Source: a virus. Taken from it: a stretch of DNA of 64,000 nt. A program made the position numbers and the translations under genes. The stretch is from IMG/VR virus record IMGVR_UViG_3300043540_000178, positions 6,864 through 70,863 of that record, one strand, 5' to 3'. Positions 3,839-38,641 of the stretch are shown here, piece by piece; position 1 is the first letter of the stretch; each line of letters begins with the position of its first letter. The notes under the pieces are model-generated. The model ran no database searches. It was given only the letters and a program-made list of their open reading frames with translations, and had not been told where the DNA came from.

Positions 3839-4702
3839 TTAATTCAATGTAGCAGAATATAGAGCCATACGCTGCCAGTTATCACCAATTGCTACCTTCA
3901 TCTTCATCGCATTGAATGCAGAGCGAATGTTCAGATCCTTGAATTTGCTAGCATTTTCACGGATAAATGCAATCACTTCCTTTTTATCGTCATTGGAGAA
4001 TTTCTTTTCTTCCATGAAAACTTGTTCGATTCGCTCAATTTTCTCGTCGGTGTTCAGCGTGATATCTGCCAGCATAGAACGAGATAAAACTGCTTGCGGA
4101 AACTTGTCAATGCTCAAATTAGAGATGAAAATCACTTTACCGATAAATTCAAAGCGAGATGGATACTCATCATCTTTAGATGCAGACCCCCATGAAAGAA
4201 TGCGCTTATCTTTGCTGTCCAATGCAGCTTTCAGCAGATTAGCACCAGTTGGATCTTTGAATACGCTATCACAATCATCAAAAATGATTATTTTGCCATT
4301 GTGATCGTACAAAGTTTCGTACAACGAACGGGGTGTAGAATAACCACTAATAATCAGAAAGTCACTATCTTCGTAAGAACCAATTGTATCTTCAACTTTG
4401 CCAATTTTCTTCAATGTTTCAGTGACAGTATGGGTCTTGCCCAGACCACCAGAACCGGTTACAATCAAAGAGGGGATAATGCCTCTTGCAACCAACTTAG
4501 TGAATTCCTCAATGAACTCAAAGCGTTCCTTAACCGAGAACTCCGATTTGGGTATGGTCATTTTAACTGTATCATTTGTTACAGTGTGACCAAACTCTTT
4601 TGCGACCATTTCTTCCAACTTTTCTTTGGAAACGGAACGTTTGAGAATTTTGCCATTTACTTCATAAACCCAAATTTTACGATTTTCTAGATACTTAATC
4701 AC
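3839..4702 (-). CDS. AAA+ ATPase
   Basis: Walker A GSGGLGKT, Walker B IIIFDDCD, NLLKAALD, IFISN, SRS. Confidence 0.8.
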   Translation of the reverse strand: MIKYLENRKIWVYEVNGKILKRSVSKEKLEEMVAKEFGHTVTNDTVKMTIPKSEFSVKERFEFIEEFTKLVARGIIPSLIVTGSGGLGKTHTVTETLKKIGKVEDTIGSYEDSDFLIISGYSTPRSLYETLYDHNGKIIIFDDCDSVFKDPTGANLLKAALDSKDKRILSWGSASKDDEYPSRFEFIGKVIFISNLSIDKFPQAVLSRSMLADITLNTDEKIERIEQVFMEEKKFSNDDKKEVIAFIRENASKFKDLNIRSAFNAMKMKVAIGDNWQRMALYSATLN

Positions 4703-4738
4703 AGCTGTTTCCTTGTTTGTAATTAATCAATGTGAATC

Positions 4739-4789
4739 ATTATACATAACCGACTGACTAAAACAATCAAAACCACTAACCTATTGATT
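4739..4789 (-). promoter_or_regulatory. Sigma70-type early promoter with upstream IHF-like box
   Basis: AATCAATAGGTTA-10nt-TTGTTT-16nt-TATAAT. Confidence 0.7.
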
Positions 4790-4808
4790 TATAAAGGAAT
4801 AAATACTC

Positions 4809-5513
4809 TTACCAGTGATAGAATTCACCTTCTCTCATCATGTTGCCTGGCATTCTTCCGGAATTTTGTAATGCATAGATACATTCATCACGCTTCTGTT
4901 TATTGGTAAACCAAATTTTCCTTGAACCAAATGATCCAGCTATGTATAGATTTTCACCATACTGTCTGGATAATTGATCTATCTCAGATATTTTAACTGA
5001 ATCTATTTTTTCAAGGTCTCTGAAAAACTTCATGGTGAGATAGTCAGAAATGTCATAACTTTGTTGATCTTGTCTAAAATAAATTCTATCACCTATTGAA
5101 TCCACAATAACACCAAAATAAACAATTGAAGACCATCTTGCAATAGTCATCATGTGCCATAATACATATAAACTGAGGATAATTAACCAAGCAGTTGAAA
5201 CATGGAGCATGTAACATCCTGCCAAGATGAAACTAACTACAAATGAATTCAAAAAAACCTTTTCGGTGATTGATTTTAAATTTCCAATATCATTTATTCG
5301 CCTTGCGCCTTTAAGTAAATACTTTTTACGCAAGAAGTAGTAATGACAGATAGCAACTGGAAGGACAACACAAAATGTTAATATAGCAACAAGCAGGAAT
5401 GTGTACCTAAGCAAAATTCCAAGGAATTGCAGCATATAAACTAGCGACTCTGCATTCTTTTCATCCGCACCTTTAAACCGTTTGTCAAAAGATCCGTCTT
5501 TTGTTCTTCTCAT
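4809..5513 (-). CDS. Membrane protein, hypothetical
   Basis: About three hydrophobic segments, N-terminal [12 protein letters not shown] motif, soluble C-terminal domain. Confidence 0.7.
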
Positions 5514-5926
5514 TTAAACACCACATGACTTATAAATTTATGGTATACCCACAAACAAGTCAACCATAGAAATCCAATTATAAATGATCTGATTATCAAA
5601 AATTTGATAGTTGTGAAAACTGCATTCCATGCAGCAAGCTCATTTGCAATAACACCAGTTGTCTCTTCCCTCACCGGTTCTGTATTTGCCTGGTTGTTTT
5701 TTTCTTCCTCATGCATTTCCATATCCAATGTAAAATCATATGCTGTTCTTTTTACTGGATCCGATAAAATTTCATACGCTGTATTGATTTCTTTCATTTT
5801 TACAGGATCACCAGTGACTTTATCAGGATGATATTTTTGTGCAAGAGATCTGTATGCAGCTCTCACTACTTCGTCTGAAGCATGAGGATCAATTTCAAGT
5901 ATTTTGTAGGCATTAGTTACATTCAT
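5510..5926 (-). CDS. J-domain (DnaJ) protein with C-terminal transmembrane helix
   Basis: YKILEI…[13 protein letters not shown]…[15 protein letters not shown] and a hydrophobic C-terminus. Confidence 0.9.
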
Positions 5927-7671: not shown

Positions 7672-7746
7672 TGGAGAACGTGCCCAGATTCGAACTGGGG
7701 TTGACCGGATTTGCAATCCGGCACATCGCCACTCTGCCACACGTTC
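7672..7746 (-). tRNA. tRNA-Cys (GCA)
   Basis: Cloverleaf, anticodon arm CCGGA-TTGCAAA-TCCGG, GTTCGAATC, U discriminator + CCA. Confidence 0.92.
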
Positions 7747-7790
7747 TCCAAATAACTCATGTACATTGATACTGGAATAAAATTTGTATA

Positions 7791-7865
7791 TGGCACCCTC
7801 GGAGAGATTCGAACTCCCGTTATTCCCATTAGAAGTGGGATGCCTTTCCACTAGACTACGAGGGC
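7791..7865 (-). tRNA. tRNA-Arg (TCT)
   Basis: TCCCA-CTTCTAA-TGGGA, GTTCGAATC, CCA encoded. Confidence 0.92.
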
Positions 7866-7891
7866 ATTTTTATTGGAATTAAATATTCAAC

Positions 7892-8320
7892 TCATGTTAA
7901 TTTTAGCCGCAATGTCTCCAGTGCGTAATTGCTTACTAAGTGAAATTGATACTTCCTCACAGCTTCATCTTGCATCTCCTTCAACCATTGGTTATCATTT
8001 TCGGCGAAGAGTGCGTCATCTGCAATCTTCAATCCACAATTATTTTCTGCGGCACTATTAACCATTGCCTGAAGCGCATGTGTCAGCCTTGCAACTCGTA
8101 AGTTGAGTGATTTGATTTTTTCTTCTTGATCGGATCGGTTTTGACTGCTACTACAAAACGGACATTGTCCATCAGCGCAATCTTCCTGCTTTACAGCTTC
8201 ATAGAAGGCTTGAAGTTCTTCTGGTGTAACTGTTAAATAGTCACCTTGGCTGTTTAGAGGTGATACTGAATTTGGATTTATACGTTTGCATATCTGCACC
8301 ATCAGTTCAGTTGCATTCAT
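7892..8320 (-). CDS. Hypothetical protein
   Basis: ORF with AAGGAG SD, CxxxxCPFC then coiled coil. Confidence 0.65.
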   Translation of the reverse strand: MNATELMVQICKRINPNSVSPLNSQGDYLTVTPEELQAFYEAVKQEDCADGQCPFCSSSQNRSDQEEKIKSLNLRVARLTHALQAMVNSAAENNCGLKIADDALFAENDNQWLKEMQDEAVRKYQFHLVSNYALETLRLKLT

Positions 8321-8339
8321 TTTAATTCTCCTTTTGAAT

Positions 8340-8735
8340 CTAATTCATTGTTATTGCATTGAGGTATTGTGCTGCGCTTTCCAAGTTATCGAAAGTTGCA
8401 CATGCATTGCCTTCTATTATTTGTGCTACTGCATTGAGTGAAGCCCATTGCTCATCTGTGAAACGCATACTTTCATCTTCACGTAGCCGAACGAATACCG
8501 TCCGACAAGATCGCTTATTACTATCATCAACCAATTCTGCAATCAAACTCACATCGGTCATCTTTGGTGTGATAACATACAAGCGAATATCACATTCTTT
8601 ACGCTGGCGCAATTCTTCTGCAATACATTCAGATGAACAATTATCAACTACAGGATTGAAGTAATCAATATCCAGCATAGGGATAATCTGATTACGCCAA
8701 TTCGATTCTTTAGTCCCACCAAGAAAAACTTTCAT
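8340..8735 (-). CDS. Nucleoside 2-deoxyribosyltransferase-like protein
   Basis: KVFLGGT..S.WR…YFNPVVD…CD..LYVITP…SLIAE. Confidence 0.75.
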   Translation of the reverse strand: MKVFLGGTKESNWRNQIIPMLDIDYFNPVVDNCSSECIAEELRQRKECDIRLYVITPKMTDVSLIAELVDDSNKRSCRTVFVRLREDESMRFTDEQWASLNAVAQIIEGNACATFDNLESAAQYLNAITMN

Positions 8736-8826
8736 ATCTCAATCCCTTTGTAATTGTTTACCAATTGCATTCATTTTATTATCGGTTTCGATGCAAGATA
8801 GTCCATATAATTTCTGGAATGAGGTC

Positions 8827-8877
8827 ATCATATATGAAATGTTTAATTGTGCAAGAATAATTACTAACTATTTGAAT
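8827..8877 (-). promoter_or_regulatory. Early promoter with IHF-like box
   Basis: ATTCAAATAGTTA-10nt-TTGCAC-16nt-TATGAT. Confidence 0.65.
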
Positions 8878-8888
8878 CTTATAGTTAA

Positions 8889-9227
8889 TTATTCGCAACC
8901 GTAGCAAGCCATTTCATTAATACTATCTAGAGTCTGTGCTGCCTTGTGCTCAACTGCTTCTTCGAGATTCTTCTTTATAATTGAAAGAGCAGTGAATACT
9001 GCATCAATGCTCTTTCTTGCCATTTTGAGATTTTCAGAATCTTTATCAGATGGTGATGCAGCTTGGGCTATGTCATAGATCAAACCGAATCTGCGAATAC
9101 CTGTATCTAAGTTACGCAAAGCAATCTGCACTTGGTCTCGGTCAATGATCTCGTAATCATCGTCAAAAGTTCGGAACATTGCTGCATCAGTAAGTGCATC
9201 TTTCATTATATTGTCATACATATCCAT
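8889..9227 (-). CDS. Hypothetical protein
   Basis: ORF with AAGGAG SD. Confidence 0.65.
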   Translation of the reverse strand: MDMYDNIMKDALTDAAMFRTFDDDYEIIDRDQVQIALRNLDTGIRRFGLIYDIAQAASPSDKDSENLKMARKSIDAVFTALSIIKKNLEEAVEHKAAQTLDSINEMACYGCE

Positions 9228-9304
9228 TAAATTCTCCTTAAAATTTCAATCTTTATACATGAACCCCTAACAGGATATCAAGATTTCCGGTGATTGCACC
9301 CAAA

Positions 9305-9550
9305 TCAGACCTTGTAATAACTGTCCAAGATGACTTGGAGTTCTTTTTTCACTCTCCGCGCAACCTCCCCCTTCCAAGAACCTGCATTGGAAAGAAAATA
9401 AGATACTATCCCTGCCGCCGCATCAAGATGATATTTTTCGGTAATATGTGTAAGGGTGGCCATTGCATTGAGATACGGTCTAGCATAAGGGCTAACATTG
9501 TGCCAATCGGTTTTAATTTCTGCTGCAATTGTATAAAGTGGACGGACCAT
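9305..9550 (-). CDS. Conserved-looking small phage protein
   Basis: RPLY.IA.EI..DW…A.PYL.AM…YFLSNA..WKGE.AR..K.EL; AGGAG SD. Confidence 0.7.
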   Translation of the reverse strand: MVRPLYTIAAEIKTDWHNVSPYARPYLNAMATLTHITEKYHLDAAAGIVSYFLSNAGSWKGEVARRVKKELQVILDSYYKV

Positions 9551-9610
9551 GATTAACTCTCCTATGTTAGTTTATCTTTTACACATGCATTATTGTGATT
9601 GCATGATGGA

Positions 9611-9661
9611 ATTATACATGGAATATTGACATGTGCAAACATAATTGCTAACTATTTGAAT
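9611..9661 (-). promoter_or_regulatory. Early promoter with IHF-like box
   Basis: ATTCAAATAGTTA-10nt-TTGCAC-16nt-TATAAT. Confidence 0.7.
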
Positions 9662-9694
9662 CTTAAGGGTATCGAGATGAATTAATAAGTAGGA

Positions 9695-9810
9695 CACTAC
9701 AGCATCATAAATGCCAGGGTTGAGTGGAATTAAATAATTTTCGTTATTGTCGCTTTCAGGTTATCTGGAACGTAACCTTATGGAGAGCCAGACATCAGAA
9801 TGTAATAGTG
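9695..9810 (-). ncRNA. Candidate structured small RNA at the 3' end of the tRNA operon
   Basis: Ends pair (CACUAU/GUAGUG, GAUGUC/GGCAUU) and enclose AGGUUA/UAACCU and AAUAA/UUAUU hairpins. No convincing ORF. Confidence 0.4.
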
Positions 9811-9812
9811 TT

Positions 9813-9905
9813 TGGCGGAAGAGAGGAGAGTCGAACTCCTAAGGGTAAGGTCATTACCTCAACTGTTTTCAAGACAGGTGCCATCGCCATTTGGCTTGCT
9901 CTTCC
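9813..9905 (-). tRNA. tRNA-Ser (TGA)
   Basis: CTGT-CTTGAAA-ACAG, long variable arm, G discriminator + CCA. Confidence 0.92.
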
Positions 9906-9947
9906 ATTGTTTCATTAAATAATACAATTATACTATGACTGCACGTT

Positions 9948-10034
9948 TGGTGGGAGTGGAGGGACTCGAACCCACACACCATTTCTGATACGGACTTCTA
10001 AGGACCGCTCGGCTACCAATTACGACACACTCCC
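9948..10034 (-). tRNA. tRNA-Leu (TAG)
   Basis: Loop CTTAGAA, long variable arm, GTTCGAGTC, ACCA. Confidence 0.88.
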
Positions 10035-10050
10035 AATAACAAATTAATAG

Positions 10051-10197
10051 CTACATCTTAATACCATGAGTGGTATCAAATAACTTTTTTGTTTCTACGT
10101 TTGATTTCCTGCGCATGGCTTTGAATGATTTTCCATGCACTCCACATTTTCTTTTCCAGCAATGAAGCTGAATCATGTTACGCAATTTCAACTTCAT
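10051..10197 (-). CDS. Small basic protein (48 aa) inside the tRNA cluster
   Basis: AAGGA SD; MKLKLRNMIQLHCWKRKCGVHGKSFKAMRRKSNVETKK…. Confidence 0.5.
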   Translation of the reverse strand: MKLKLRNMIQLHCWKRKCGVHGKSFKAMRRKSNVETKKLFDTTHGIKM

Positions 10198-10249
10198 TTC
10201 TGATTCCTTTATGAGTGATGAACATTCATTAACGAGTTCACAATTAAAA

Positions 10250-10324
10250 TGGTTGCGGACGCAGGACTTGAACCTGCAACTATGGGGAATGAACCCATCG
10301 TGATACCAATTTCACTAATCCGCG
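10250..10324 (-). tRNA. Initiator tRNA-fMet (CAT)
   Basis: C1:A72 mismatch, three G-C pairs in the anticodon stem (ATGGG-TTCATTC-CCCAT), ACCA. Confidence 0.88.
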
Positions 10325-10331
10325 ATTGTTT

Positions 10332-10406
10332 TGGTGGGTCTTCAGGGGAACGATCCCTGCCTCCTCGGTTATGAGCCGAGCACTCTCACCAGTGAGTTAC
10401 AGACCC
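10332..10406 (-). tRNA. tRNA-Met elongator or tRNA-Ile2 (CAT)
   Basis: CTCGG-CTCATAA-CCGAG, atypical T-loop ATCGTTC, ACCA. Confidence 0.8.
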
Positions 10407-10435
10407 ATATCTTCAAATTGATGTGTAATGTTATT

Positions 10436-10512
10436 TGGTGTCCGAGATGGGATTCGAACCCATACTTAAGAGATTTTAAGTCTCTTGCCTCTACCAATTG
10501 CGCTACTCGGAC
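10436..10512 (-). tRNA. tRNA-Leu (TAA), short variable loop
   Basis: AGAGA-CTTAAAA-TCTCT, GTTCGAATC, ACCA, 77 nt. Confidence 0.88.
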
Positions 10513-10516
10513 AAGC

Positions 10517-10590
10517 TGGTAGGAGTGCAGGGAGTCGAACCCCAGCTAAAGGTTTTGGAGACCTTTGTGCTACCGTAACACTTCACTCCT
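10517..10590 (-). tRNA. tRNA-Trp (CCA)
   Basis: AAGGT-CTCCAAA-ACCTT, GTTCGACTC, CCA. Confidence 0.9.
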
Positions 10591-10631
10591 AATGATTTCT
10601 CATGCATCGCTTTATTCCATAATATACATTA

Positions 10632-10705
10632 TCGGCGATGCTGGATTTGAACCAGCGATCTTCTGTTCCCAAAACAGACGGATTACCAAGCTTTCCCAAT
10701 CGCCG
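10632..10705 (-). tRNA. tRNA-Pro (TGG), CCA not encoded
   Basis: CGG 5' end, TCTGT-TTTGGGA-ACAGA, GTTCAAATC. Confidence 0.9.
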
Positions 10706-10770
10706 ACAATGCATACTACTTAACATTTTAGTAATTTAATTACAATATCATTAGTTGTAGTTTAGGAAAC

Positions 10771-10855
10771 TGGTGCTGGAGGTGAGACTCGAACTCACGT
10801 AAGGTTTCCCTGGTGGCTTACAAAACCACTGCAATTGCCGCTATGCGACTCCAGC
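10771..10855 (-). tRNA. tRNA-Thr (TGT) with long variable arm
   Basis: GTGGT-TTTGTAA-GCCAC, extra arm CAGGGAAACCTTAC, G1-C72/C2-G71, ACCA. Confidence 0.8.
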
Positions 10856-10867
10856 ATAATTTTAATT

Positions 10868-10943
10868 TGGTGCGGGTACGGCGGATTCGAACCCCGTCTT
10901 ATAGATTGGAAGTCTATCGTGCAACCGGTAACACTTTACCCGC
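10868..10943 (-). tRNA. tRNA-Gly (TCC)
   Basis: GCG 5' end, ATAGA-CTTCCAA-TCTAT, GTTCGAATC, CCA. Confidence 0.9.
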
Positions 10944-11173
10944 ATTTTGCACACTTTAAAAATACTCACAATAGAATATGTATAATTAAATGTCCCATTA
11001 ACCTAGATGGACTATCCATTCCAAGTTATACAGAAACACTTTAATTATATTAGCATTATTCGCTCCATAAGAACTCATCTCCGCTAACCCGCCCGTTCTT
11101 ATTTTATTATACTGACTTGGATGGCCCTCGTTGCTCTTGTCAGTTGACCATCATCTGATGAATCATGTATACC

Positions 11174-11201
11174 ATTCTACATGAATTTTTTAATTTTGCA
11201 A
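11174..11201 (-). promoter_or_regulatory. Probable promoter of the tRNA operon
   Basis: TTGCAA-16nt-TAGAAT, just downstream of a terminator. Confidence 0.55.
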
Positions 11202-11236
11202 GTAGAATAACTAACTTCAATTTACGTTCTTGAAAT

Positions 11237-11271
11237 AAAACAAAATGCCCTGAAACTTTCATCTCAGGGCA
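11237..11271 (-). terminator. Intrinsic terminator
   Basis: TGCCCTGA stem followed by TTTTGTTTT on the minus strand. Confidence 0.7.
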
Positions 11272-11326
11272 CTTAACGAAGTAAAAATATAGTGCTCTTA
11301 TTATAATGTTTATTTATTATACTTTA

Positions 11327-13269: not shown

Positions 13270-13845
13270 TCATTCACAGTAAGAACTTCTCGATTTTGGT
13301 GTCTCATACCAATCAACTTGAGAAACTTTCACACCCAATGGTTTCATTTTTTCTTTTACAATATCAAAGAGCCATTTTGATAAATTTTCACTTGTCGGAA
13401 CAAAATCAACAATGAAGAATCCTTCCAATGTTTCATAAACAGGAAGGGTTGAATCAATCCCTTCTACATTGATCTCATAACCAACCAATTTATTTTCTAC
13501 AAAAACTTTATCTAACTTTATATGTCGTTTTGTATTTGAGTCAACTTCCTCGTAGAGCTGTACTACCAGTGTGTTATACATAGGATCATTTATATCAATG
13601 ATAAACTTATGGTCAAGTGTATCATCAAGGAAAGTTTTCAACCAACCCAGATGCTTGAAGTCTGTAACCATACCACGTTCTAGTGCATCAGCTTCAAGAA
13701 AAACATGAACCAATCCTTCATGTCCATGCAAGTGACGACATTTACAAGATGTGTCACCTTTTTCACAGAATTGGCTTTCTAGTTTCTGACTCCACACTCT
13801 ATGCCCATAACAAAACGAAAATGATTTATCAATTCTCCAACCCAT
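13270..13845 (-). CDS. queD: 6-carboxy-5,6,7,8-tetrahydropterin synthase
   Basis: F..GHR, CRHLHGH, GMVTDF, LDHKF, PTSENL, ETPKS. Confidence 0.92.
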   Translation of the reverse strand: MGWRIDKSFSFCYGHRVWSQKLESQFCEKGDTSCKCRHLHGHEGLVHVFLEADALERGMVTDFKHLGWLKTFLDDTLDHKFIIDINDPMYNTLVVQLYEEVDSNTKRHIKLDKVFVENKLVGYEINVEGIDSTLPVYETLEGFFIVDFVPTSENLSKWLFDIVKEKMKPLGVKVSQVDWYETPKSRSSYCE

Positions 13846-15051: not shown

Positions 15052-16185
15052 TTATCCTGCAAAATTAGAATTGTACACATTCTTTAAACTATACTTTGAC
15101 TTCATAATATTTTTCAAAAAATATTCAACGTATTCAGGCTCTTTACCACGCATGTTTTGCATAATCAAACCGAAATATGGGTGACCATTTAATGAAAGTG
15201 CAGCTTCTTTAAAAGATGTGTTATTGGCAATCAATGTTTCAGTTATACTTTCTACCTGACTACGAACAGAAGAAATATCGTCAGATACGGATTTTTCAAT
15301 CTGTTCAATCTTCGTCAAATCCAAACCAGCATCAGTGACAGATGATTTAATATCATCTAGTTTTTCTAGTGCAGCCAGTTCAGCAACATCCCGCTCACGT
15401 AAACCTGTTTGCACACGATGTTGTTGCAAATACCACTTTGTCTTTACTTTATAAAATTCATTCTTCACAATGTCAAATACAATCCAGCCTTCAATATTTT
15501 TTGCGGTTTCATGTAACTCAACCATGTCTTTCTGAAAATTATCCCATACCTTGACAGGAGCACTAGGCATTGTAGGAAATCCATTTTCTTTCAATAGAAG
15601 ATCACGCAAATAAATCCCATCAGTCATTCGACGAGAATTTAACCACCATGTACAAGGGATATCACCATAAGGAATAACAATCCTCCAATCTGGATGATAG
15701 AATTCAAAAATTGGCGATATCCCATTTGCTGCCAACTGAATTATGTTATCTGTCCATACATTAGCATTTTCCTGTTTCCAGAACCACTTGGTGAATTCTT
15801 GTGCAACATCTGAGTAAAAAGACTTCTTGGTCTTGAAATAAACATTGCCATTAATGACAACGGCATTAATCATTGATCCATCCATCTTGTCAAATGTGTA
15901 ATTTGTGATATTATTCCAGTTGATATTATATGAAAGAGTTTCTTCACGCTCACCAACGTTAAAAAACTTGTGAAATGCAACACCAATTAATTCACCAGTG
16001 GATTTCAGATAAGTATGGCCCCTCAGTTCACGAGAAAATGGCATATCCCAAAACTTAGAATCAGCAATCATATAACACGGAATTACAACGTCCACATCAC
16101 CAACTGTTTCTTCTTTGAATTGAACTCGTGGATCAGTTCGGAAGTGTTCTAAGTCAGATAAATTTTGTGGAATTTTAAAAATCAT
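15052..16185 (-). CDS. rnlA: RNA ligase 1 (T4 Rnl1-like)
   Basis: RELRG, FHKFFNVGE, KMDGSMI, FEF, RIVIPY, EGWI, KVKTKWY; adjacent to pseT. Confidence 0.92.
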   Translation of the reverse strand: MIFKIPQNLSDLEHFRTDPRVQFKEETVGDVDVVIPCYMIADSKFWDMPFSRELRGHTYLKSTGELIGVAFHKFFNVGEREETLSYNINWNNITNYTFDKMDGSMINAVVINGNVYFKTKKSFYSDVAQEFTKWFWKQENANVWTDNIIQLAANGISPIFEFYHPDWRIVIPYGDIPCTWWLNSRRMTDGIYLRDLLLKENGFPTMPSAPVKVWDNFQKDMVELHETAKNIEGWIVFDIVKNEFYKVKTKWYLQQHRVQTGLRERDVAELAALEKLDDIKSSVTDAGLDLTKIEQIEKSVSDDISSVRSQVESITETLIANNTSFKEAALSLNGHPYFGLIMQNMRGKEPEYVEYFLKNIMKSKYSLKNVYNSNFAG

Positions 16186-16258
16186 TTCCCCTAGAATTCA
16201 ACATGCATTATATAGTTTTGTTAAGCACCAACGATTACATCAAACATGATTCATTCTC

Positions 16259-16417
16259 CTAAACATCAAACTGTTCGTCGAACATCATAGCCACCATACA
16301 AGTAATACCACAAGTTATTAGCATAATACCCATATCTTTATATGATGGCATTATAAAACACAAAATAAAACAGATAAAAGAACAAACATAAAAGAATATT
16401 GATATTGATTTACGCAT
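16259..16417 (-). CDS. Small two-helix membrane protein (52 aa)
   Basis: GAGG SD; MRKSISIFFYVCSFICFILCFIMP…. Confidence 0.5.
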   Translation of the reverse strand: MRKSISIFFYVCSFICFILCFIMPSYKDMGIMLITCGITCMVAMMFDEQFDV

Positions 16418-16577
16418 AATTAGCCTCACAATCACAAATTGGAATAACTATCACATCTTCAATATTAAAAAGGTATTGATCTACAATTAGTTGTTGTACT
16501 TGCAATGAAGACATACTCCTATTGAAGTATAATGTATCGAAAAAACGATTACCCAAATATACATCAAACATCATCAT
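16410..16577 (-). CDS. Small hypothetical protein (55 aa)
   Basis: GAGGA SD, downstream of an early promoter. Confidence 0.5.
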   Translation of the reverse strand: MMMFDVYLGNRFFDTLYFNRSMSSLQVQQLIVDQYLFNIEDVIVIPICDCEANYA

Positions 16578-16607
16578 TTTATTTTCCTCTGTTAATTAAT
16601 AATTTTC

Positions 16608-16658
16608 ATTATATATTAATCAACTATCTTTGCAAGGTAGTTTATTAACTATCTGATT
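16608..16658 (-). promoter_or_regulatory. Early promoter with IHF-like box
   Basis: AATCAGATAGTTA-10nt-TTGCAA-16nt-TATAAT. Confidence 0.7.
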
Positions 16659-16755
16659 TATTTTGGAAATTTCAATTAAATTGTAATGAAAATCAATATA
16701 TTGATGGACTACATAATTCTTTCTCAGATTGTTCTATTAAGAGAATTAAATTATT

Positions 16756-17070
16756 AATCATCATCCTAGATTTGAACGTGATTTTGCTATTCAGCGAAAA
16801 TCACGAGAATTGTCATCCTGAGTTCTCATTGTGAACTATAGAGTCAAACCTTTAAGGTATGGTTGGGTCACGCTGTACACCATTTACTTGACTGTTTATT
16901 GTGGCGCATGATTGCAACTGCCCTATAGTCGACAATTGTTGCAATCATTGTAGGTTGCTTCACAAGCAGAGCCTACTCCGTTTTTACTACGATCTGAAAA
17001 CAGCGCCACTGTCCCTGAAGGTGTGGTTGCTTTGGGAACTAGATAATTCCCCAGGTCAGCTTTAATGATT
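16756..17070 (-). ncRNA. Large multi-helix structured non-coding element (strand inferred from neighbours)
   Basis: ORF-free, GC-richer than flanks, many nested inverted repeats, paired ends and a potential pseudoknot. Confidence 0.6.
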
Positions 17071-17078
17071 CTTACTTA

Positions 17079-18284
17079 CTACAAATCCAGTAAACCTTTG
17101 GATTGTCCCTTTTTATTTTTTGGTTCATTTGCAGTAGTGTCTTTTATAGTTTCATTCACAATTCTTTGAGGCGCATCAAAAAATCTTGTCAATACAGTTT
17201 CACCTTTAGGAAACCTCATTACTCCACTCATAACCATTTCGATTTTTTGGATTGCATCATCTGTTCCATCAAATAAGCATTGATGAGGCACTATTTCATC
17301 ATGGGACAACCCGCGAGGTGCAACTGGAATTGTGTCATAATATAATGCTTCAGCAAGACAATATCCAAAATTTTCTTCAATTGAATTTGTTAACATGACT
17401 TTACTTGTTGCTATTTCTTCGTGATATTGTTTTTTTGTCAGCCCTTCTTTGATTGTGATAATGCCTTGCTTTTCCATCAGATGAGCTTTCTCAATTAACC
17501 ATGCTTGATTTGATTTCAACTCCTTGTTTGAAGTTGTAATCACAAATTCCCAATCTGGGTGCTTTGACTTTAATATGGCAGCAATATCTAAACTGATATT
17601 TGGACGTTTTTCATAATCAAAGCGATTTGGCATAATAATTTTATTGATTTTATTGCTGGTAAAAATCACATTTTCACCACTGGTATCAAATGTTCGTTTA
17701 AAAGATGTTACACCTGCATATTCACTCTTGAATAACGGATTACCTGTAACGATAATCTTATCTGATAATAGCATCCAATCATCTTTGTTTGCATATGGAC
17801 GAATTCTGCGTTCGATTACTGCATGCTTGTGATACTCAGAACCAACGAACACTTTATCGCAGATGCTCAACCAACCTAGTTCAGTGTACTTTTGCCACGG
17901 GGCCAACTGCTCCATAAGGTCTTCGTGAGTATAGGATGCTGCATGTAAGAATGCATATATACGAATGTTTTTGTTATTAATCTGTGCCATCATCTTGATG
18001 GCCTCTATACCCCAATGTTCCAAGTCAAAACTGAATACAATATCGTCATCTTTGACTTTGCCTTCTTGAAACATTTTCGCCATCGTAGCAACCTGAGTAT
18101 TCTTATAATGAACTGTGCTGTTCATCGGCAACCACGAGCCAACATCAATGCTATCTGAAAGAGGCGTTCCGTCAATCACTTGTACATTATATTTTTGTGC
18201 AAACACCTTCGGAAATTCTCTATACCACTGACCGGTGTATCTTGACTCAAATGGTTCCAATGGTAAAAGCCATGCTGTATTCAT
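17079..18284 (-). CDS. Glycosyltransferase, GT-B/GT4-like
   Basis: PNRFDYEKRP, EENFGYCLAEA (Ex7E), PVAP, N-terminal LEPFESRYTGQW. Confidence 0.85.
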   Translation of the reverse strand: MNTAWLLPLEPFESRYTGQWYREFPKVFAQKYNVQVIDGTPLSDSIDVGSWLPMNSTVHYKNTQVATMAKMFQEGKVKDDDIVFSFDLEHWGIEAIKMMAQINNKNIRIYAFLHAASYTHEDLMEQLAPWQKYTELGWLSICDKVFVGSEYHKHAVIERRIRPYANKDDWMLLSDKIIVTGNPLFKSEYAGVTSFKRTFDTSGENVIFTSNKINKIIMPNRFDYEKRPNISLDIAAILKSKHPDWEFVITTSNKELKSNQAWLIEKAHLMEKQGIITIKEGLTKKQYHEEIATSKVMLTNSIEENFGYCLAEALYYDTIPVAPRGLSHDEIVPHQCLFDGTDDAIQKIEMVMSGVMRFPKGETVLTRFFDAPQRIVNETIKDTTANEPKNKKGQSKGLLDL

Positions 18285-18667
18285 ATTTCAATGTCTCCGG
18301 TAAAATCTTCTGGTCGAGTAATCACCATAGTTCGTTTGGTGGTTGCAAACACTGTTAGATCTTTTGAAAATTTAATTTGATCGTTTGGATGCAAACTCCA
18401 AAATGATTCATTGTCAATCGTCAAAATGATATTTACATTTTCGGGATGTTCAGATACTTTAGTTCGTTCAACAGTCACAATGAAGCGTTCAGTTAAATGT
18501 GTCAACTCATATAAATCAAGTATGTTATTGTGATCTGAGATGTATAAACCTCTCACATCATCAGGCACTTCAATTTTGAAGTTCTCATTGCTGATTTCAT
18601 ATGCAGTACAAAACAATGTTTTTATACCGCACAAACGACCTTCTACTTCAATACCAATTTTTGCCAT
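18281..18667 (-). CDS. Hypothetical protein within the DNA-modification operon
   Basis: GIEVEG…GIKTLF motif; start (MAKIG) overlaps the upstream stop and stop overlaps the GT start. Confidence 0.7.
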   Translation of the reverse strand: MAKIGIEVEGRLCGIKTLFCTAYEISNENFKIEVPDDVRGLYISDHNNILDLYELTHLTERFIVTVERTKVSEHPENVNIILTIDNESFWSLHPNDQIKFSKDLTVFATTKRTMVITRPEDFTGDIEI

Positions 18668-19488
18668 TATGCAAGATACTCCGTTACGCAACCATTTTCG
18701 TCATCTTCACTCACTTCTATGGTCAAAGAACGACCTGGGTATTTATTCTTTATCTTCAATGATAATTCATCGGCAAGCATTTCGCAAGATTTGAAATCTA
18801 GTTTAAGAGTTCCATCACCATAGAGAGATTCACACCACCTCTTAAACTGAATAAACTCAATATCACGGTCATCGTGAAATACCTCAATTTGAACTTTGAA
18901 ATGAAACATGTGCCGATGCGGATACCCTAGGAAACTCACATCTTTCAACTTAGGGTCAGCCAATGCTGCTGGGTATTGATGTATTCCTTCTTTCTGAAAC
19001 TTTATCCAAATCTTACAAACATCATCTTTTTTTGTCAGAGACTCAAACAAAAAGTACTTCTCATTCGCAAATAGTTTGTGTTGTGATGGGTAAAGTGTCA
19101 ATAAAGTTTTTTCTTTTTCGACTTGTAATTCTTCAGAAAGAATATCAAATTTAGTGTTCATATCTATTGAATAATATTGTAGTTTATACATGTGCAAATT
19201 TTGCTTTGCAAACCGATTGACAGACTTATGATGTGGGTGGACATCATGTATATTTGGAACCAAGAAAATTGTCTCAGGATCTTCTTGTTTGATTGATATC
19301 GTTTCATTTTTCAAGAATATAGGCTCGAAGTTGAATAATTCTGCTGCTCTTTTTGCCTCTGCAATTCGTTCTTCAGTCAGGTCATAAAAATAATAAACTT
19401 TACTAACCAAACCAGCTTTTAGCAATCTGAAACACCCTATAACATCGTCATCAATATGCGGCGACAGTATCACTACATTTTTCATCAT
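18667..19488 (-). CDS. PIG-L/LmbE deacetylase domain fused to a QueD-paralog T-fold domain (DpdL-like)
   Basis: N-terminal ILSPHIDDDVIG and HPHH metal motifs; C-terminal EGIH.YP, LGYPHRHMFHF, DRDIEF, SCEMLA, VSEDDENG. Confidence 0.8.
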   Translation of the reverse strand: MMKNVVILSPHIDDDVIGCFRLLKAGLVSKVYYFYDLTEERIAEAKRAAELFNFEPIFLKNETISIKQEDPETIFLVPNIHDVHPHHKSVNRFAKQNLHMYKLQYYSIDMNTKFDILSEELQVEKEKTLLTLYPSQHKLFANEKYFLFESLTKKDDVCKIWIKFQKEGIHQYPAALADPKLKDVSFLGYPHRHMFHFKVQIEVFHDDRDIEFIQFKRWCESLYGDGTLKLDFKSCEMLADELSLKIKNKYPGRSLTIEVSEDDENGCVTEYLA

Positions 19489-20077
19489 AACTCTTCTTTC
19501 TTTGGAGATAATCAACAACTTCACCATTCACAAAATACTCTTGTGACATAGGTATTTCATTCTCATGTAGATAGTCAAAAACATCATCGTCTGTCCAATC
19601 ATAAATTGGATATAACATACTCAAGTCGAATATGCCTCTTTCTACAAATGATGGCATATCTTTTCGACTGATTTTTTCACCGTTGACAATGATTTCAGAA
19701 CTCTTGCCCGGCCTATTCCATTCACTTCGTCTAGCACCATCAATTTGGCATTTCAGCATATTTTTTGCTATCCAATTTGGCATTTTGCTTGAGTGCATGA
19801 ACTGGACTTCATATTTGGTGCCGACCATTTTATATAAAAACTGTAAAGTCAGTTCGTGCATTGCTGTTAGTTTGGCGACGTCGTCCTCTGTTTCATTTAG
19901 TAGAGGTTTAACGTTGTGAACAATTGTTAGTTCATGTGGCTTTATAACTTGACTTGTTAAGTGTAGTACAACAGTTGAATCTTTCCCGCCTGAGTGTCCC
20001 AAAAACAGACCCGAACCAAATTTGTTTTTTGCATCACGAATTAATTGTAATGCAGAATCAACTTTACTTACATTCAT
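19451..20077 (-). CDS. PAPS-reductase-fold PP-loop adenylyltransferase-like protein
   Basis: SGGKDST, DGARRSE..R, YPIYDWTDDDVFDYL; no C-terminal redox Cys motif. Confidence 0.8.
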   Translation of the reverse strand: MNVSKVDSALQLIRDAKNKFGSGLFLGHSGGKDSTVVLHLTSQVIKPHELTIVHNVKPLLNETEDDVAKLTAMHELTLQFLYKMVGTKYEVQFMHSSKMPNWIAKNMLKCQIDGARRSEWNRPGKSSEIIVNGEKISRKDMPSFVERGIFDLSMLYPIYDWTDDDVFDYLHENEIPMSQEYFVNGEVVDYLQRKKSYDEKCSDTVAAY

Positions 20078-21353
20078 ATAAAAACTCCTCTAATGATGAT
20101 CCATTATCTTCAATAGATGCAGTTCTTTTGCTATCAAAGTATTTACCGTATTCACGCTTCCATTTCTTAAAATCATCAACGGTGTTCAAATGTTCAAGTG
20201 TGTGGTACATACCTTCATATTTCTTCTTGGTTTTACTAACATAATTTGACTCATTTTTCAACTTATCAACCATCTCAAATAAGTTGTGCACCGAGAACAA
20301 TAGCAGTGCAAAACGAATGTTGTTTAAGTCACACATTGCTTGAACATTATCTTCAGGGTTTCCAGTTTTGGCAACTCTATCTTCCGCTGATAATAATAGA
20401 TTATCATGGAACTGTTCTTCTGTAAAGTTCAATCCTAGTTTAGTCTTTTGGAATGTGTCAAAAAGATGCCAGATTTTCCAATATGTTTGAGTGCGATGTC
20501 GACCAATCATCCAAATCTGACTGCCAACTTGTATTTGTGAACGTATTACACCTCCGGTATGTTTTGTACTGTCATATGAGATTAGTTGATTTTCTTTGAA
20601 CAAATGCTGTAGCTTCATCAATGTTTGAATTCTATTTGGACTCCCAACCCCCAGTAAATGGAAATGATTTGTTAAATTGTCCGGTACTTGCAATTTCGCT
20701 AAGGTGAAGTATCGTTCAACATCCTCTAACTCACCATTACCCAAACATCCACCACCAGATGCAATACCTGCTAGTTTAGCTTGATAATCTTGAGGAATAT
20801 GTTTCAACAACTTATCTGCCCATTCTTGATACGTGTCAATATCATTCCCCTGAATAATCATAAACGGTTTACATTTTGTTTGCAATTCGTCAAACACATC
20901 AATTTGCTTACAAATATTTCTGGCAGTTTGCTTGGTGCACTCATCAACCATGCTCCTGTCATATTTTCGATTTTCACTATTGACGAATTGACTTTTTCCC
21001 TCTGTTCTTAGTGGGATCTCATCAAAACACATTGCATGGGTTCCATACTTTGCCTGAACTCGATAAACTTTATCTCGAAGTTCATCATTTGGTGTATGAC
21101 CAAGGGTAATCATTTGCAATCCACCAGAGTCGACTTGAATTGAATATGGTGAGAAATAATCAACATGATATTGACCATCATCCGGTTCATTATATGCATT
21201 GAATAATACACCAAAAGAATGATAATCATACCATGAGTTTACCTTGTGTACCATATCGTGGATAGGTTTCAAGGCTTCAGGTGTACTCAATCTCACAAAC
21301 TGAGAACTGAATACAAATGAGAGTGCAGACGCAATGTATTCTAACCGAGGCAT
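20064..21353 (-). CDS. dpdA: TGT-fold guanine transglycosylase (DpdA-like)
   Basis: VDSGGLQ, MCFDEIP, IIQGN, HLLGVGS, SYDST; adjacent to folE. Confidence 0.8.
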   Translation of the reverse strand: MPRLEYIASALSFVFSSQFVRLSTPEALKPIHDMVHKVNSWYDYHSFGVLFNAYNEPDDGQYHVDYFSPYSIQVDSGGLQMITLGHTPNDELRDKVYRVQAKYGTHAMCFDEIPLRTEGKSQFVNSENRKYDRSMVDECTKQTARNICKQIDVFDELQTKCKPFMIIQGNDIDTYQEWADKLLKHIPQDYQAKLAGIASGGGCLGNGELEDVERYFTLAKLQVPDNLTNHFHLLGVGSPNRIQTLMKLQHLFKENQLISYDSTKHTGGVIRSQIQVGSQIWMIGRHRTQTYWKIWHLFDTFQKTKLGLNFTEEQFHDNLLLSAEDRVAKTGNPEDNVQAMCDLNNIRFALLLFSVHNLFEMVDKLKNESNYVSKTKKKYEGMYHTLEHLNTVDDFKKWKREYGKYFDSKRTASIEDNGSSLEEFLYECK

Positions 21354-34038: not shown

Positions 34039-34080
34039 AATATATATTGTCAGATTCCTATCTACACCACTAGAGAAAAA

Positions 34081-34425
34081 TTATTTCTTGTCAGCTCTTT
34101 CTTGAGCGGCTTTATCTGAGTATGTTCCTGCCTTATAGCGCTCACCCAATTTTGCAATATTATTATCAATTGTTTCTTCTCGGGTGATGTTGTATGCCTG
34201 ACGTAATCCCTCCATGTAAAATTCTAGGTCACCGAGTTCTTCAATAACATTAGCACGATCTAAAGGTTTACGGTAAATAACAGCCTTCTTGACTGCATCA
34301 ATCAATTCACCCGCTTCACCTACAATACCAACTGCCATGTGTAATGCATGGCAATCTTCTGCGGTAAGTGTATTCAAAATTTCTTTTCCTGGTTTTGCCA
34401 GTGATTTAACCATTTCATTGTACAT
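34081..34425 (-). CDS. MazG-like nucleotide pyrophosphohydrolase
   Basis: GIVGEAGELID.VKK…EELGDL.FY…N..KL..RY; start at MYNEM. Confidence 0.85.
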   Translation of the reverse strand: MYNEMVKSLAKPGKEILNTLTAEDCHALHMAVGIVGEAGELIDAVKKAVIYRKPLDRANVIEELGDLEFYMEGLRQAYNITREETIDNNIAKLGERYKAGTYSDKAAQERADKK

Positions 34426-34426
34426 T

Positions 34427-38580: not shown

Positions 38581-38630
38581 TGACATTCAGGGGATAACCT
38601 ATTGTAGCAGGCATCTCCCCTGAATGTCAA
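38581..38630 (-). promoter_or_regulatory. Sigma70 promoter embedded in a 14-bp inverted repeat upstream of gene 41
   Basis: TTGACA-18nt-TACAAT with TGn extension; TGACATTCAGGGGA/TCCCCTGAATGTCA. Confidence 0.65.
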
Positions 38631-38641
38631 AATTGTAACTT

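Follow-up and report, generated by a model that had tools for sequence, protein, structure and literature searches.

Genomic Context of the Element

The window analysed here, 64,000 nucleotides long, spans the part of a T4-like phage genome where the replication genes lie, and the minus strand of the window holds 84 of the 94 ORFs of a crude map, including all neighbours of the element described below. The element lies in an ORF-free gap of 501 nt (16578–17078), which had been noted as unusual in a preliminary description of this DNA and is, in the crude map, the largest true intergenic stretch of the window; two other apparent gaps, at 34039–34426 and 38615–38921, were both found to be coding. 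Upstream on the gene strand there are a DpdA/TGT-like gene, a PAPS-reductase-like gene, two genes of unknown product and a glycosyltransferase gene, which ends this DNA-modification cluster, and the element begins directly past its stop codon, in agreement with the position downstream of a modification operon given before. In the Xanthomonas phages X1 and BUDD the same gene set is annotated together with preQ0-pathway genes, and a QueD gene is present here at 13270–13845, 3 kb downstream of the element. The variable region around the element is bordered by DNA-modification genes upstream and by Rnl1/PNKP tRNA repair genes and a tRNA cluster downstream, the latter consisting of 11 tRNAs at 7672–10943 (ARAGORN), 6 kb away. 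The 55-aa ORF listed in Table 1 matches an ORF (5762–5926) of L018, a metagenome contig from a related uncultured T4-like phage, with E = 1e-7 in the pairwise comparison and E = 0.004 by blastx. One DNA sequencing run, and no listed RNA run, contains the stretch; the contigs of that run include two 100%-identical pieces with zero variants.

Table 1. Features of the locus in the order of the minus strand; positions are those of the window.
Feature	Position	Strand	Remarks
Glycosyltransferase gene	17079–18284	minus	401 aa; Pfam Glycos_transf_1, 2.1e-10; 226 homologues
H0, 7-bp hairpin with one G-U pair	17034–17051	minus	centroid folds; directly past the stop codon; without U-tract
5′ single-stranded leader, conserved block with ACACCU (17024–17019)	17010–17033	minus	covariance-model alignment to L018 4556–4580
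GC-rich 7-bp stem, 5′ arm GUGGCGC	17003–17009	minus	pairs with 16901–16907
H1, hairpin whose internal loop and inner stem are conserved (GGCUCUGC..GUG..GCAACC)	16950–16976	minus	covarying outer stem; single copy in the window
H2, 11-bp and 4-bp stems separated by an AAU bulge, with an 8-nt loop	16908–16948	minus	predicted pair table
Pseudoknot, 5′ strand: whole H2 loop, GACUAUAG	16923–16930	minus	pair table
GC-rich stem, 3′ arm GCGCCAC	16901–16907	minus	this phage only
AGUCAA/UUGACU stem (16893–16888 with 16847–16842)	16842–16893	minus	encloses H4 and H5; seen in this phage only
H4, hairpin AUGGU...ACCAU	16859–16883	minus	collinear L018 hairpin AUUGGG...UCCAAU, 4693–4716
H5, short hairpin ACCU-UAA-AGGU, then conserved AAGGUU block	16848–16858	minus	L018: CCUUGA...UCAAGG, 4717–4734
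Pseudoknot, 3′ strand CUAUAGUU	16834–16841	minus	81 nt past the loop, directly after H5
H6, 9-bp (+3-bp) hairpin into conserved CACGUUC (16780–16774)	16777–16805	minus	no U-tract behind
Sigma-70-like promoter TTGCAA-16-TATAAT	16608–16635	minus	10/12 matches; next transcription unit, outside the RNA
55-aa ORF	16410–16577	minus	first gene past the element; downstream synteny anchor

Within the gap, the gene strand offers only ORFs of 30 and 31 aa, and the plus strand a single cysteine-rich ORF of 54 aa with a GTG start (16901–17065). It is scarcely credible that the latter is a small protein gene: the frame is there, but it has no Pfam match, no ribosome-binding site was seen before its GTG and it runs against the strand of all its neighbours. 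Moreover, the L018 gap has no ORF of at least 50 aa on that strand, and the alignment to L018 requires indels of 2, 3 and 7 nt, which break the frame. A decayed ORF was considered and dropped; blastx of the element against the ORFs of relatives gave nothing with E below 4. A group I intron was also rejected, since the glycosyltransferase is full length when compared with its homologues, the 55-aa ORF has a homologue and a promoter of its own and there is no Intron_gpI match.

The G+C content rises to 0.42–0.435 in the element; the window as a whole has 0.35, and the promoter region beside the element 0.23. An AT-rich stretch next to a structured one, in a region of T4-like replication genes, could point to the replication origin or primer-RNA element proposed in the preliminary description, a proposal for which no support was found and which we regard as very improbable. 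Neither iterons nor tandem repeats were found in the region, but only short two-copy matches, and the cumulative GC skew falls throughout it with no turning point or change of sign; the AT-rich part is accounted for by the promoter, relatives do without the element, and the G-U pairs and covariation described below indicate the folding of an RNA rather than a DNA site.

Predicted Fold and Folding Energy

All the pairings listed in the preliminary description could be read in the sequence, namely, on the plus strand, GTGGCGC (16901–07) with GCGCCAC (17003–09), GTCAA (16843–47) with TTGAC (16888–92), and GTAGG (16950–54) with CCTAC (16972–76) and its inner TGCTT/AAGCA. The plus-strand arms of H2, ATGATTGCAAC (16908–18) and GTTGCAATCAT (16938–48), make up the inverted repeat I14 (11 nt, 100%), and those of H6 are CGTGATTTT (16777–85) and AAAATCACG (16797–805). 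On the minus strand the ends pair as AAUCAUUA/UGAUGAUU in a terminal stem, of which no counterpart was found in L018, the alignment made with filters off closing another, shorter stretch. The H2 loop is complementary to a downstream segment over 8 bp with one G-U pair (GACUAUAG, 16930–16923, with CUAUAGUU, 16841–16834), a pairing that is part of the inverted repeat I10. G-U pairs occur in H0, H1, H2, H4 and the pseudoknot, and the tabulated helices contain zero A-C pairs, each of which would turn into a G-U pair on the opposite strand; since the G-U pairs favour it, the RNA was assigned to the gene (minus) strand.

The 501 nt were more stable than their dinucleotide shuffles, with z-scores of −4.23 on the minus and −4.32 on the plus strand (0 of 100 shuffles as stable), and the same was observed for segments of 339 nt (z −3.68 and −3.27) and of 290 nt (z −3.18; 1 of 200 shuffles as stable). 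When 42 minus-strand windows of 339 nt were taken from the same genome as background (mean z −0.80, sd 1.34), three of them reached z ≤ −3.19, one coding window had −4.47 and the element itself only −2.66 in that run. Thus, of the comparison with shuffled controls put forward in the preliminary description, the part concerning shuffles stands, but folding energy alone is unexceptional against this genome's own, coding, background. The corresponding stretch of L018 is not unusually stable either (z −1.03; 18 of 100 shuffles as stable).

A Counterpart in a Related Phage

The contig L018 was found with a profile of the nine closest glycosyltransferases. A covariance model of 133 nt made from the sequence of this phage alone (R2) scored L018 4556–4669 at 26.6 bits over the full model length, and the match lies on the gene strand in the syntenic gap, the element being placed in both phages after the glycosyltransferase gene and before that of the Rnl1 RNA ligase. 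With filters off, over 69 kb (both strands of L018 and of three other relatives, L003, L005 and L006), the next-best scores were 11.4, 10.9 and 10.8 bits, which leaves the L018 match 15 bits above background. The calibrated E-values, however, are on the optimistic side: R1, run with filters off, gave 153 matches at E ≤ 10 in 20 kb. The likeness to L018 in sequence only is not significant, as the global alignment has a z-score of 0.75 and the local score was equalled in 56 of 500 shuffles. On the other hand, the flanking glycosyltransferases of the two phages are just 60% identical as proteins and, therefore, unconstrained DNA would be expected to be randomised between them.

About eight landmarks stand in the same order in both copies, and over 244 nt their spacing differs by no more than 2 nt. 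The leader block, H1, H2, H4, H5 and the terminal hairpin with CACGUUC follow each other in the same way; ACACCU and CACGUUC are 244 nt apart in this phage and 242 nt apart in L018, and GCAACC and AAGGUU 100 and 101 nt, respectively. Of 21 bases compared in H1, 17 agree with L018 4609–4629, and three of the five outer pairs have changes in both partners. As counterpart of H2, L018 has a 10-bp stem (4637–4664) that differs in sequence and again carries an 8-nt loop; five of its pairs are changed on both sides. The L018 hairpin at 4785–4807 is unrelated to H6 in sequence and is followed by an identical CACGUUC (4807–4813); H6 with CACGUUC is likely the 3′ border of the conserved RNA. At the other end, a long hairpin (4324–4374) lies directly past the last ORF of L018, as H0 does here. 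By contrast, GUGGCGC/GCGCCAC and AGUCAA/UUGACU, the stems of highest stability in the copy of this phage, are unconserved, which counts against a structured RNA: both arms of the former, which had been taken as the centre of the fold in the preliminary description, are deleted in L018 in the covariance-model alignment, and no L018 counterpart of the latter was found when the sequence was read by eye, without a script.

In H1 and H2 together, 94.5% of the cells were paired and eight pairs were changed on both sides, in an alignment that was itself fitted to the structure. As a control the partners were slid by 1–3 columns, which left only 36–47% paired, and the observed values were reached in 3 of 500 shuffles. 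MAFFT alignments of the two RNAs were inconsistent with the structure and were therefore left out of the pair counts, and RNAalifold on the anchored alignment cleanly recovered H1 and H2 only. Because just two sequences are known, every one of these covariation counts represents a single comparison.

The pseudoknot provides a count that is independent of the model, because its downstream partner falls outside R2. The L018 equivalent is GUUCAAUG/CAUUGAAU, with the partner CAUUGAAU at 4741–4748, and five of the seven Watson–Crick pairs have both bases changed from one phage to the other. Each gap contains exactly one full 8-bp partner for its H2 loop, 81 nt past the loop here and 86 nt past it in L018; when the sequence downstream in L018 was dinucleotide-shuffled 5000 times, 308 of the shuffles had such a partner anywhere and 32 had it within 15 nt of the spacing of this phage. 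We conclude that the H2 loop and the downstream segment form a covarying H-type pseudoknot, as predicted from the two sequences. The 8-bp minus-strand pairing proposed in the preliminary description is therefore not only present but covaries independently in L018. A covarying loop pairing of this kind would fit intra-molecule and inter-molecule pairing alike.

It could be argued that the element has no function, being the decaying remnant of a gene, an intron or a mobile cassette, or a set of chance inverted repeats, and that the likeness of L018 reflects recent shared ancestry or coincidence. The ordinary folding z-scores of both copies, the insignificant similarity in sequence only, the relatives that dispense with the element and the total of just two members are in line with this idea. 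We find it distinctly unlikely, because the landmarks hold their places although the flanking genes have diverged, stems of differing sequence still pair, the pseudoknot partner moved together with the loop and the R2 score stands well clear of its background. Positions 17033–16774 of the minus strand thus most likely specify a folded RNA of about 250 nt with a long-range pseudoknot, as judged from sequence comparison. The large phage ncRNA proposed in the preliminary description gains from the recurrence of these ~250 nt on the gene strand of L018 at the syntenic site, with covarying hairpins and pseudoknot, and loses from their absence in other relatives with the same gene order; with two members, the element is to be regarded as a candidate rather than a discovery.

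Distribution and Relation to Known RNAs

The known copies are two, one in this phage, where the element is single-copy in the window, and one in L018. Six closer relatives are represented by Logan, ENA and JGI contigs of 2–45 kb, which encode glycosyltransferases (P0002–P0007) with 59–68% identity. In L003, L005 and L006 the gene order from glycosyltransferase to RNA ligase seems to be preserved with no copy of the element in between; the ligase was recognised there by ORF size and position only. The 501 nt had no match among 50,697 GenBank phage records by blastn in distant mode, and in 16 related loci neither blastn nor nhmmer had a significant match. In IMG/VR, single-protein scans with the glycosyltransferase and with Rnl1 detected no relatives, nor did the profile of the nine closest glycosyltransferases, and the exact-stem pattern had 0 matches. 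The H1 motif was found there at seven loci, all of them GC-rich coding sequence, and R1 matches none of these; a looser H1...AAGGTT pattern gave three loci, none of which is matched by R3. Similarly, no third member emerged from 283 kb of loci, from R1 on the whole records G001–G005 or from R3 on the whole records G001, G003, G006 and G007.

The element RNA belongs to no described family. At gathering score, Rfam 15 gave 11 matches over the whole window, all of them tRNA, and for 16500–17200 at E ≤ 10 there were five (E 1.3–9.7), to eukaryotic snoRNA and miRNA models and far below their cut-offs; L018 gave none at gathering score and seven weak ones at E ≤ 10. Neither ROOL, GOLLD, ARRPOF, group I and II introns, preQ1 and other riboswitches, self-cleaving ribozymes nor the phi29 pRNA produced a qualifying Rfam match, and the strong match that would have ended the novelty claimed in the preliminary description is absent. 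ARAGORN detected neither tRNA nor tmRNA in the gap, and no tmRNA at all. We propose an H1-H2-pseudoknot RNA family, defined by H1 with GGCUCUGC...GCAACC, by H2 with an 8-nt loop pairing 81–86 nt downstream, directly after AAGGUU, and by a terminal hairpin followed by CACGUUC; all the defining features are present in both members.

Among known systems, rnaC and rnaD of T4 (species 1 and 2 RNA) are comparable as stable ncRNAs with no assigned function, on the gene strand of a T4-type phage, and they are processed from a longer transcript. However, they measure 139 and 119 nt and lie at the end of the tRNA cluster, unlike the ~250 nt found here 6 kb from one, and R3 with filters off on T4 68000–76000 (16 kb over both strands) gave 0 matches at E ≤ 1. 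ROOL and GOLLD are ornate, pseudoknotted, protein-free-looking RNAs of phages and prophages, often near tRNA genes, but they are much longer than ~250 nt and have no Rfam match in the element at gathering score or at E ≤ 10. Bacterial small RNAs derived from 3′-UTRs likewise come from operon ends, and for the element, too, a separate promoter was not detected; as a rule an intrinsic terminator closes them and they associate with Hfq or ProQ, whereas no terminator was found for the element and its fold is much larger and pseudoknotted. The pairing of a hairpin loop with downstream sequence recalls H-type pseudoknots, one loop base acting as linker and leaving 7 Watson–Crick pairs. A phage example, the leader of the T4 gene 32 mRNA, is a translational operator, and differs in that the element lies in a 3′ region and has a second loop of 81–86 nt with two hairpins. 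The processive antiterminator of the HK022 put type consists of two adjacent stem-loops downstream of a promoter and acts in cis on RNA polymerase; the resemblance, judged from the general description of put, is limited to the two adjacent hairpins H1 and H2. Finally, the PeSL promoter-terminator cassettes of T4-type hyperplastic regions (PMC2839356, PMC4122927) are comparable in that the element, too, occupies a variable inter-module region of a T4-like phage, and in L018 a stem-loop and a consensus early promoter come after it, the promoter recurring ~600 nt further on. PeSLs are short, repeated regulatory cassettes, while the element is single-copy, ~250 nt long and conserved as a fold.

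Transcription Context and Possible Functions

No promoter of the element's own was found, and the first conserved block follows the stop codon of the glycosyltransferase gene too closely to leave room for one. An intrinsic terminator was considered and rejected, since the scan of 15900–17600 gave 0 terminator-like sites and neither H0 nor H6 is followed by a U run; elsewhere this phage uses canonical U-tract terminators (fold of 11045–11326). In L018, where a 67-aa ORF and ~230 nt come between the glycosyltransferase gene and the element, a canonical terminator (4949–4963) comes ~135 nt past the last conserved block, and promoters with 12/12 matches are located at 4998–5025 and 5594–5621. The 67-aa ORF was also considered as a fused C-terminus of the glycosyltransferase of this phage, to which it has no similarity. 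As there is neither space for a promoter nor an intrinsic terminator before the first conserved block, the RNA is probably the 3′ part of the operon transcript.

A first possibility is that the element acts in cis at the 3′ end of this transcript, either by blocking 3′-to-5′ exonucleases, and so stabilising the modification mRNA, or by modifying the polymerase and tuning read-through into the small ORFs, Rnl1 and PNKP, in the manner of antiterminator RNAs. Its place at the very end of the operon, directly past the stop codon here, would suit such a role, as would the downstream genes of this phage with no terminator in between, the delayed terminator of L018 and a core of two adjacent hairpins. 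We nevertheless consider it rather unlikely: a multi-helix fold of 250 nt far exceeds what exonuclease protection normally needs, the downstream unit has its own promoter-like site (10/12 here, 12/12 in L018), in L018 the 67-aa ORF and the spacer intervene after the glycosyltransferase gene, and relatives with the same operon do without the element.

A riboswitch-like aptamer on a read-through transcript with the downstream genes, binding for example a 7-deazaguanine intermediate (QueD being 3 kb off), would agree with the pseudoknotted fold and the sequence-conserved internal loop, both typical of aptamers, and with neighbours from the preQ0/7-deazaguanine pathway; in L018 only, a weak sub-threshold c-di-GMP-II match covers H1 (20.9 bits, gathering score 53.5). 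This is improbable, however, as no riboswitch family matches the copy of this phage even at E ≤ 10, the element follows the nearest pathway genes instead of preceding them, no expression platform lies next to a start codon, and a promoter here, and a terminator with a promoter in L018, separate it from the downstream ORFs.

We tentatively favour a new accessory structured RNA with a putative function. The transcript of the dpdA-glycosyltransferase operon would carry this RNA as its 3′ part, H0 on one side and H6 with CACGUUC on the other may mark processing borders, and the product would probably persist as a stable, compact molecule acting as RNA. Its mode of action would most likely be the binding of a protein through the conserved internal loop of H1. 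The absence of the element from other relatives with the same gene order, and its position in a variable region with counter-defence genes on either side, suggest an accessory cassette rather than a core control element. A bolder version of this accessory RNA, possible but doubtful, is that it founds a new class of pseudoknotted phage ncRNAs that move in and out of the T4-like variable region as small ORFs do, and that it either acts in trans, as a decoy for a host defence that targets or senses RNA or by sequestering it, or assembles with itself.

Apart from tRNAs, introns and a few orphan families, hardly any structured RNAs have been described from tailed phages, and even in T4-type phages, which are the best studied, the two stable RNAs have no assigned function. 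If the accessory RNA proposed here is real, a molecule of ~250 nt beside hypermodification and RNA-repair genes would be a new candidate for RNA-based takeover of the host or counter-defence. As for the method, the combination of a covariance model made from a single sequence with synteny can rescue an orphan RNA that is missed by sequence searches.

Genomic context of the element

The window belongs to a 70.9-kb IMG/VR virus record, of 39% estimated completeness, in which the element is single-copy; the stretch occurs in a sole sequencing run, of DNA and with the label hot springs metagenome, from which two 100%-identical contig pieces gave no population variants. Judging by its gene content (gp43-type DNA polymerase, rIIA, SbcC-like nuclease subunit, DnaB-like helicase, DNA ligase, ribonucleotide reductase and gp23-like head protein), the phage is T4-like, and in a crude ORF map of the window the minus strand carries 84 of the 94 ORFs. 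The longest ORF of the 501-nt gap is at most 31 aa on the gene strand; the other strand holds one of 54 aa, which was rejected as a gene, having neither family nor counterpart. DpdA is accompanied by a GT1-family glycosyltransferase in the relatives too, which suggests a glycosylated 7-deazaguanine base. The order of the deazaguanine cluster varies by lineage (window 17079-21353 versus L015-L017): in the window and in L018, a related phage metagenome contig, the cluster opens with the DpdA-like gene and closes with the glycosyltransferase, whereas in the Xanthomonas phages X1 and BUDD and the Burkholderia phage BCSR5 the TGT/DpdA gene lies directly 3' of the glycosyltransferase.

Features of the gene neighbourhood and of the element, in minus-strand order
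Feature	Position in window	Strand	Remarks
DpdA/TGT-like gene	20064-21353	minus	first in order
PAPS-reductase-like gene, then two unknown genes	between DpdA/TGT-like and glycosyltransferase genes	minus	
Glycosyltransferase gene	17079-18284	minus	adjoins the 501-nt gap
501-nt gap	3' of glycosyltransferase gene		
H4		minus	AUGGU/ACCAU here, AUUGGG/UCCAAU in L018; collinear landmark
H5		minus	CCU/AGG core here, CCUUGA/UCAAGG in L018; collinear landmark
AAGGUU block		minus	collinear landmark after H5
Pseudoknot partner	16841-16834	minus	collinear landmark after AAGGUU
UGACA block		minus	collinear landmark after pseudoknot partner
H6, long hairpin		minus	sequence unrelated in L018; collinear landmark
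CACGUUC block		minus	last collinear landmark, after H6
55-aa ORF and 58-aa ORF	3' of 501-nt gap	minus	
Rnl1	15052-16185	minus	followed by PNKP, QueD
tRNA genes (11)	beyond QueD		

Folding and flanking signals

All the helices reported in the preliminary description, and its pairing of a loop with a downstream segment, were found in the sequence at the positions stated there. Compared with dinucleotide shuffles the fold was significantly stable on both strands (z −3.2 to −4.3). As background for this genome, 42 minus-strand windows of 339 nt gave a mean z of −0.80 (sd 1.34), with 3 of them at −3.19 or lower, and in this same run the element reached only −2.66; the ordinary sequence of this genome is thus somewhat structured, and thermodynamics alone is insufficient for the claim. 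The most stable background window (21001-21339, minus strand, z −4.47, beyond the element's own value) is coding and lies inside the DpdA-like gene.

The G+C content was 0.42-0.435 in 16800-17100, compared with a window mean of 0.35 and with 0.23 in 16500-16800. The AT-rich part, from 16578 to about 16700, contains a gene-strand promoter of sigma-70-like type (TTGCAA-16-TATAAT, 16635-16608), upstream of the 55-aa ORF, so that the conserved RNA spans about 17033-16774 and the rest is promoter and leader. A terminator scan of 15900-17600 returned no intrinsic terminator; canonical hairpin-plus-U-tract terminators are used elsewhere by this phage, as seen by folding 11045-11326. This minus-strand 282-nt gap, which adjoins the tRNA cluster (fold z −2.77) and holds one such terminator, a strong one, lies at the tRNA-cluster end corresponding to that occupied in T4 by rnaC and rnaD.

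Rfam 15 gave only tRNAs at the gathering score and only noise in the gap at E<=10, and ARAGORN found no tmRNA, so that no database match takes away its novelty. In behaviour it is closest to the orphan stable phage RNAs T4 rnaC and rnaD, ROOL and GOLLD, but it falls outside them: the Rfam models fail on it, and R3, a covariance model of the element, had no match in the T4 rnaC/rnaD locus. It may also resemble the HK022 put RNA and the T4 gene 32 pseudoknot.

A counterpart in a related phage

The element stretch had no DNA match in GenBank phages. Homologues of the glycosyltransferase numbered 226, the nearest, on Logan/ENA contigs, being 68% identical. The relatives compared were 13 IMG/VR loci (glycosyltransferase identity 38-55%), phages X1, BUDD and BCSR5 (44-52%) and contig L018 (60%). 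Several IMG/VR loci apparently run from glycosyltransferase through small ORFs to RNA ligase without a long gap, the ligase being assigned by ORF size and position only. L018 has the order of the window (DpdA-like, PAPS-reductase-like, 273 aa, 136 aa, glycosyltransferase), followed by a 67-aa ORF, a stretch of about 710 nt in which no gene is credible, an SprT-like gene, small ORFs and Rnl1. Since its 54-aa ORF matches the 55-aa ORF of the window (E 1e-7), the two non-coding stretches are positional counterparts. Upstream of its RNA copy, L018 carries about 230 nt of additional non-coding sequence (4320-4555), with a long hairpin (4324-4374) directly after the 67-aa ORF and several smaller hairpins, which have no counterpart in the window.

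By sequence-only comparison the two stretches did not stand out: the global alignment gave z 0.75, and the best local score was reached by 56 of 500 shuffles. Model R1 (315 nt, built from the window sequence only with its centroid structure) had a single non-self match below E 0.01 in 220 kb, namely L018 4589-4669 on the gene strand (16.8 bits), and R2, which covers 17033-16901 of the window (133 nt), matched L018 4556-4669 over the full length of the model with 26.6 bits. The shortened calibration was optimistic (R1 with filters off gave 153 matches at 'E<=10' in 20 kb), and empirical controls were therefore used. With filters off, R2 was run on both strands of L018 and three IMG/VR loci (L003, L005, L006; 69 kb), where the syntenic site scored 26.6 bits and the runners-up 11.4, 10.9, 10.8 and 9.9; a 15-bit margin at the sole place where a homologue is expected makes chance unlikely. 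Homology of the two stretches is shown by the covariance models.

Conserved structure and pseudoknot

All the conservation and covariation counts rest on two members, the window copy and L018. In their alignment, which was fitted to the model, 94.5% of cells were paired and 8 pairs were changed on both sides; slid partners gave 36-47% paired, and 3 of 500 shuffles reached the observed values. Hairpin H1 shares 17 of 21 bases with L018 (GGCUCUGC..GUG..GCAACC), CUC/A internal loop included, while its outer stem passes from GUAGG/CCUAC to UCCGG/CCGGG. The H2 stem is wholly changed in sequence, 11 bp plus 4 bp here versus 10 continuous bp in L018, and its loop has 8 nt in both. Landmarks outside the model are collinear downstream (Table): the distance between ACACCU and CACGUUC is 244 nt in the window copy against 242 nt in L018, and that between GCAACC and AAGGUU 100 against 101 nt.

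The best-supported feature is the loop pairing of the preliminary description, which recurs in L018 with its pairs changed. In the window the H2 loop GACUAUAG (16930-16923) has its complement, CUAUAGUU, 81 nt further downstream; for the L018 loop, GUUCAAUG, the partner CAUUGAAU follows after 86 nt. Within its own gap each partner is the sole full 8-bp one. The two pairings share the terminal G-U, and of their 7 Watson-Crick pairs 5 are changed on both sides. When the 366 nt that follow in L018 were shuffled 5000 times with dinucleotides preserved, an 8-bp partner occurred anywhere in 308 shuffles, and within 15 nt of the window spacing in only 32. This test owes nothing to the covariance models, to which the partner was unknown. 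Both loops begin with G; if this base acts as a linker, the second stem, of 7 bp, would stack on H2 in the manner of an H-type pseudoknot.

GCAACC, on the 3' side of H1, is complementary to AAGGUU, after H5, both blocks being invariant (16953-16958 with 16848-16853, 4 bp; L018 4624-4629 with 4731-4736, 6 bp). In the minimum-energy fold of L018 this pairing replaces H1; the RNA might adopt it as an alternative conformation, or it might serve as a tertiary contact.

Not everything noticed at first was conserved. The GC-rich GUGGCGC/GCGCCAC stem, first described as closing a multiloop, is missing from L018, where both arms align to gaps. On reading the L018 sequence no counterpart was found for AGUCAA/UUGACU or for the terminal stem AAUCAUUA/UGAUGAUU, the filters-off alignment closing a different, shorter stretch. 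Moreover, the L018 stretch folded no better than shuffles (z −1.03), so that much of the stability first noticed comes from lineage-specific stems.

Interpretation of the element

G-U pairs occur in H0, H1, H2, H4 and the pseudoknot, and the helices whose pairs were listed out contain no A-C pairs, which would be G-U on the opposite strand; this pattern and the gene orientation assign the RNA to the minus strand. The non-coding RNA reading is supported in revised form, with the pseudoknot upheld, the strand assigned and a core other than that first proposed. The element shows no resemblance to ORFs of relatives, and its alignment with L018 requires 2-, 3- and 7-nt indels; a small protein encoded here ranks last among the rivals. 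Just above it comes the origin or primer RNA of the preliminary description, which found no support. Two phages carry a conserved pseudoknotted gene-strand fold that is lacking in other phages with this neighbourhood. We regard a selected RNA structure as very probable, and the absence of any function, the second-ranked rival, as unlikely; a new RNA motif is credible.

The first conserved block begins 46 nt past the glycosyltransferase stop codon, with only H0 intervening, and a promoter scan found no promoter-like site on the gene strand nearer than 17367; on these grounds the RNA would most simply be the tail of the operon transcript. H0 and H6 with CACGUUC are candidate processing borders, and if a protein or another RNA binds, the conserved internal loop of H1 would be the most probable place. 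A tail of this kind could also act in cis, as a stabiliser or read-through element (the first-ranked rival) or, with less probability than a structure without function, as a riboswitch. Being dispensable in relatives and lying in a variable region, beside the cassette of L018 described below, it is read here as a putative accessory RNA gene rather than an operon control element. The whole chain, from operon tail through borders and contact site to accessory gene, is proposed tentatively, at somewhat less than even chances.

The L018 copy adjoins a terminator-plus-early-promoter cassette, in which a stem-loop with U-tract (4949-4963) precedes a perfect TTGACA-16-TATAAT promoter (4949-5025 overall). 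Its near-identical promoter context (GAATTTGACA...) recurs about 600 nt downstream (5594-5621), before the next small ORFs; the two sites resemble the repeated terminator/early-promoter cassettes (PeSLs) of T4-type phages.
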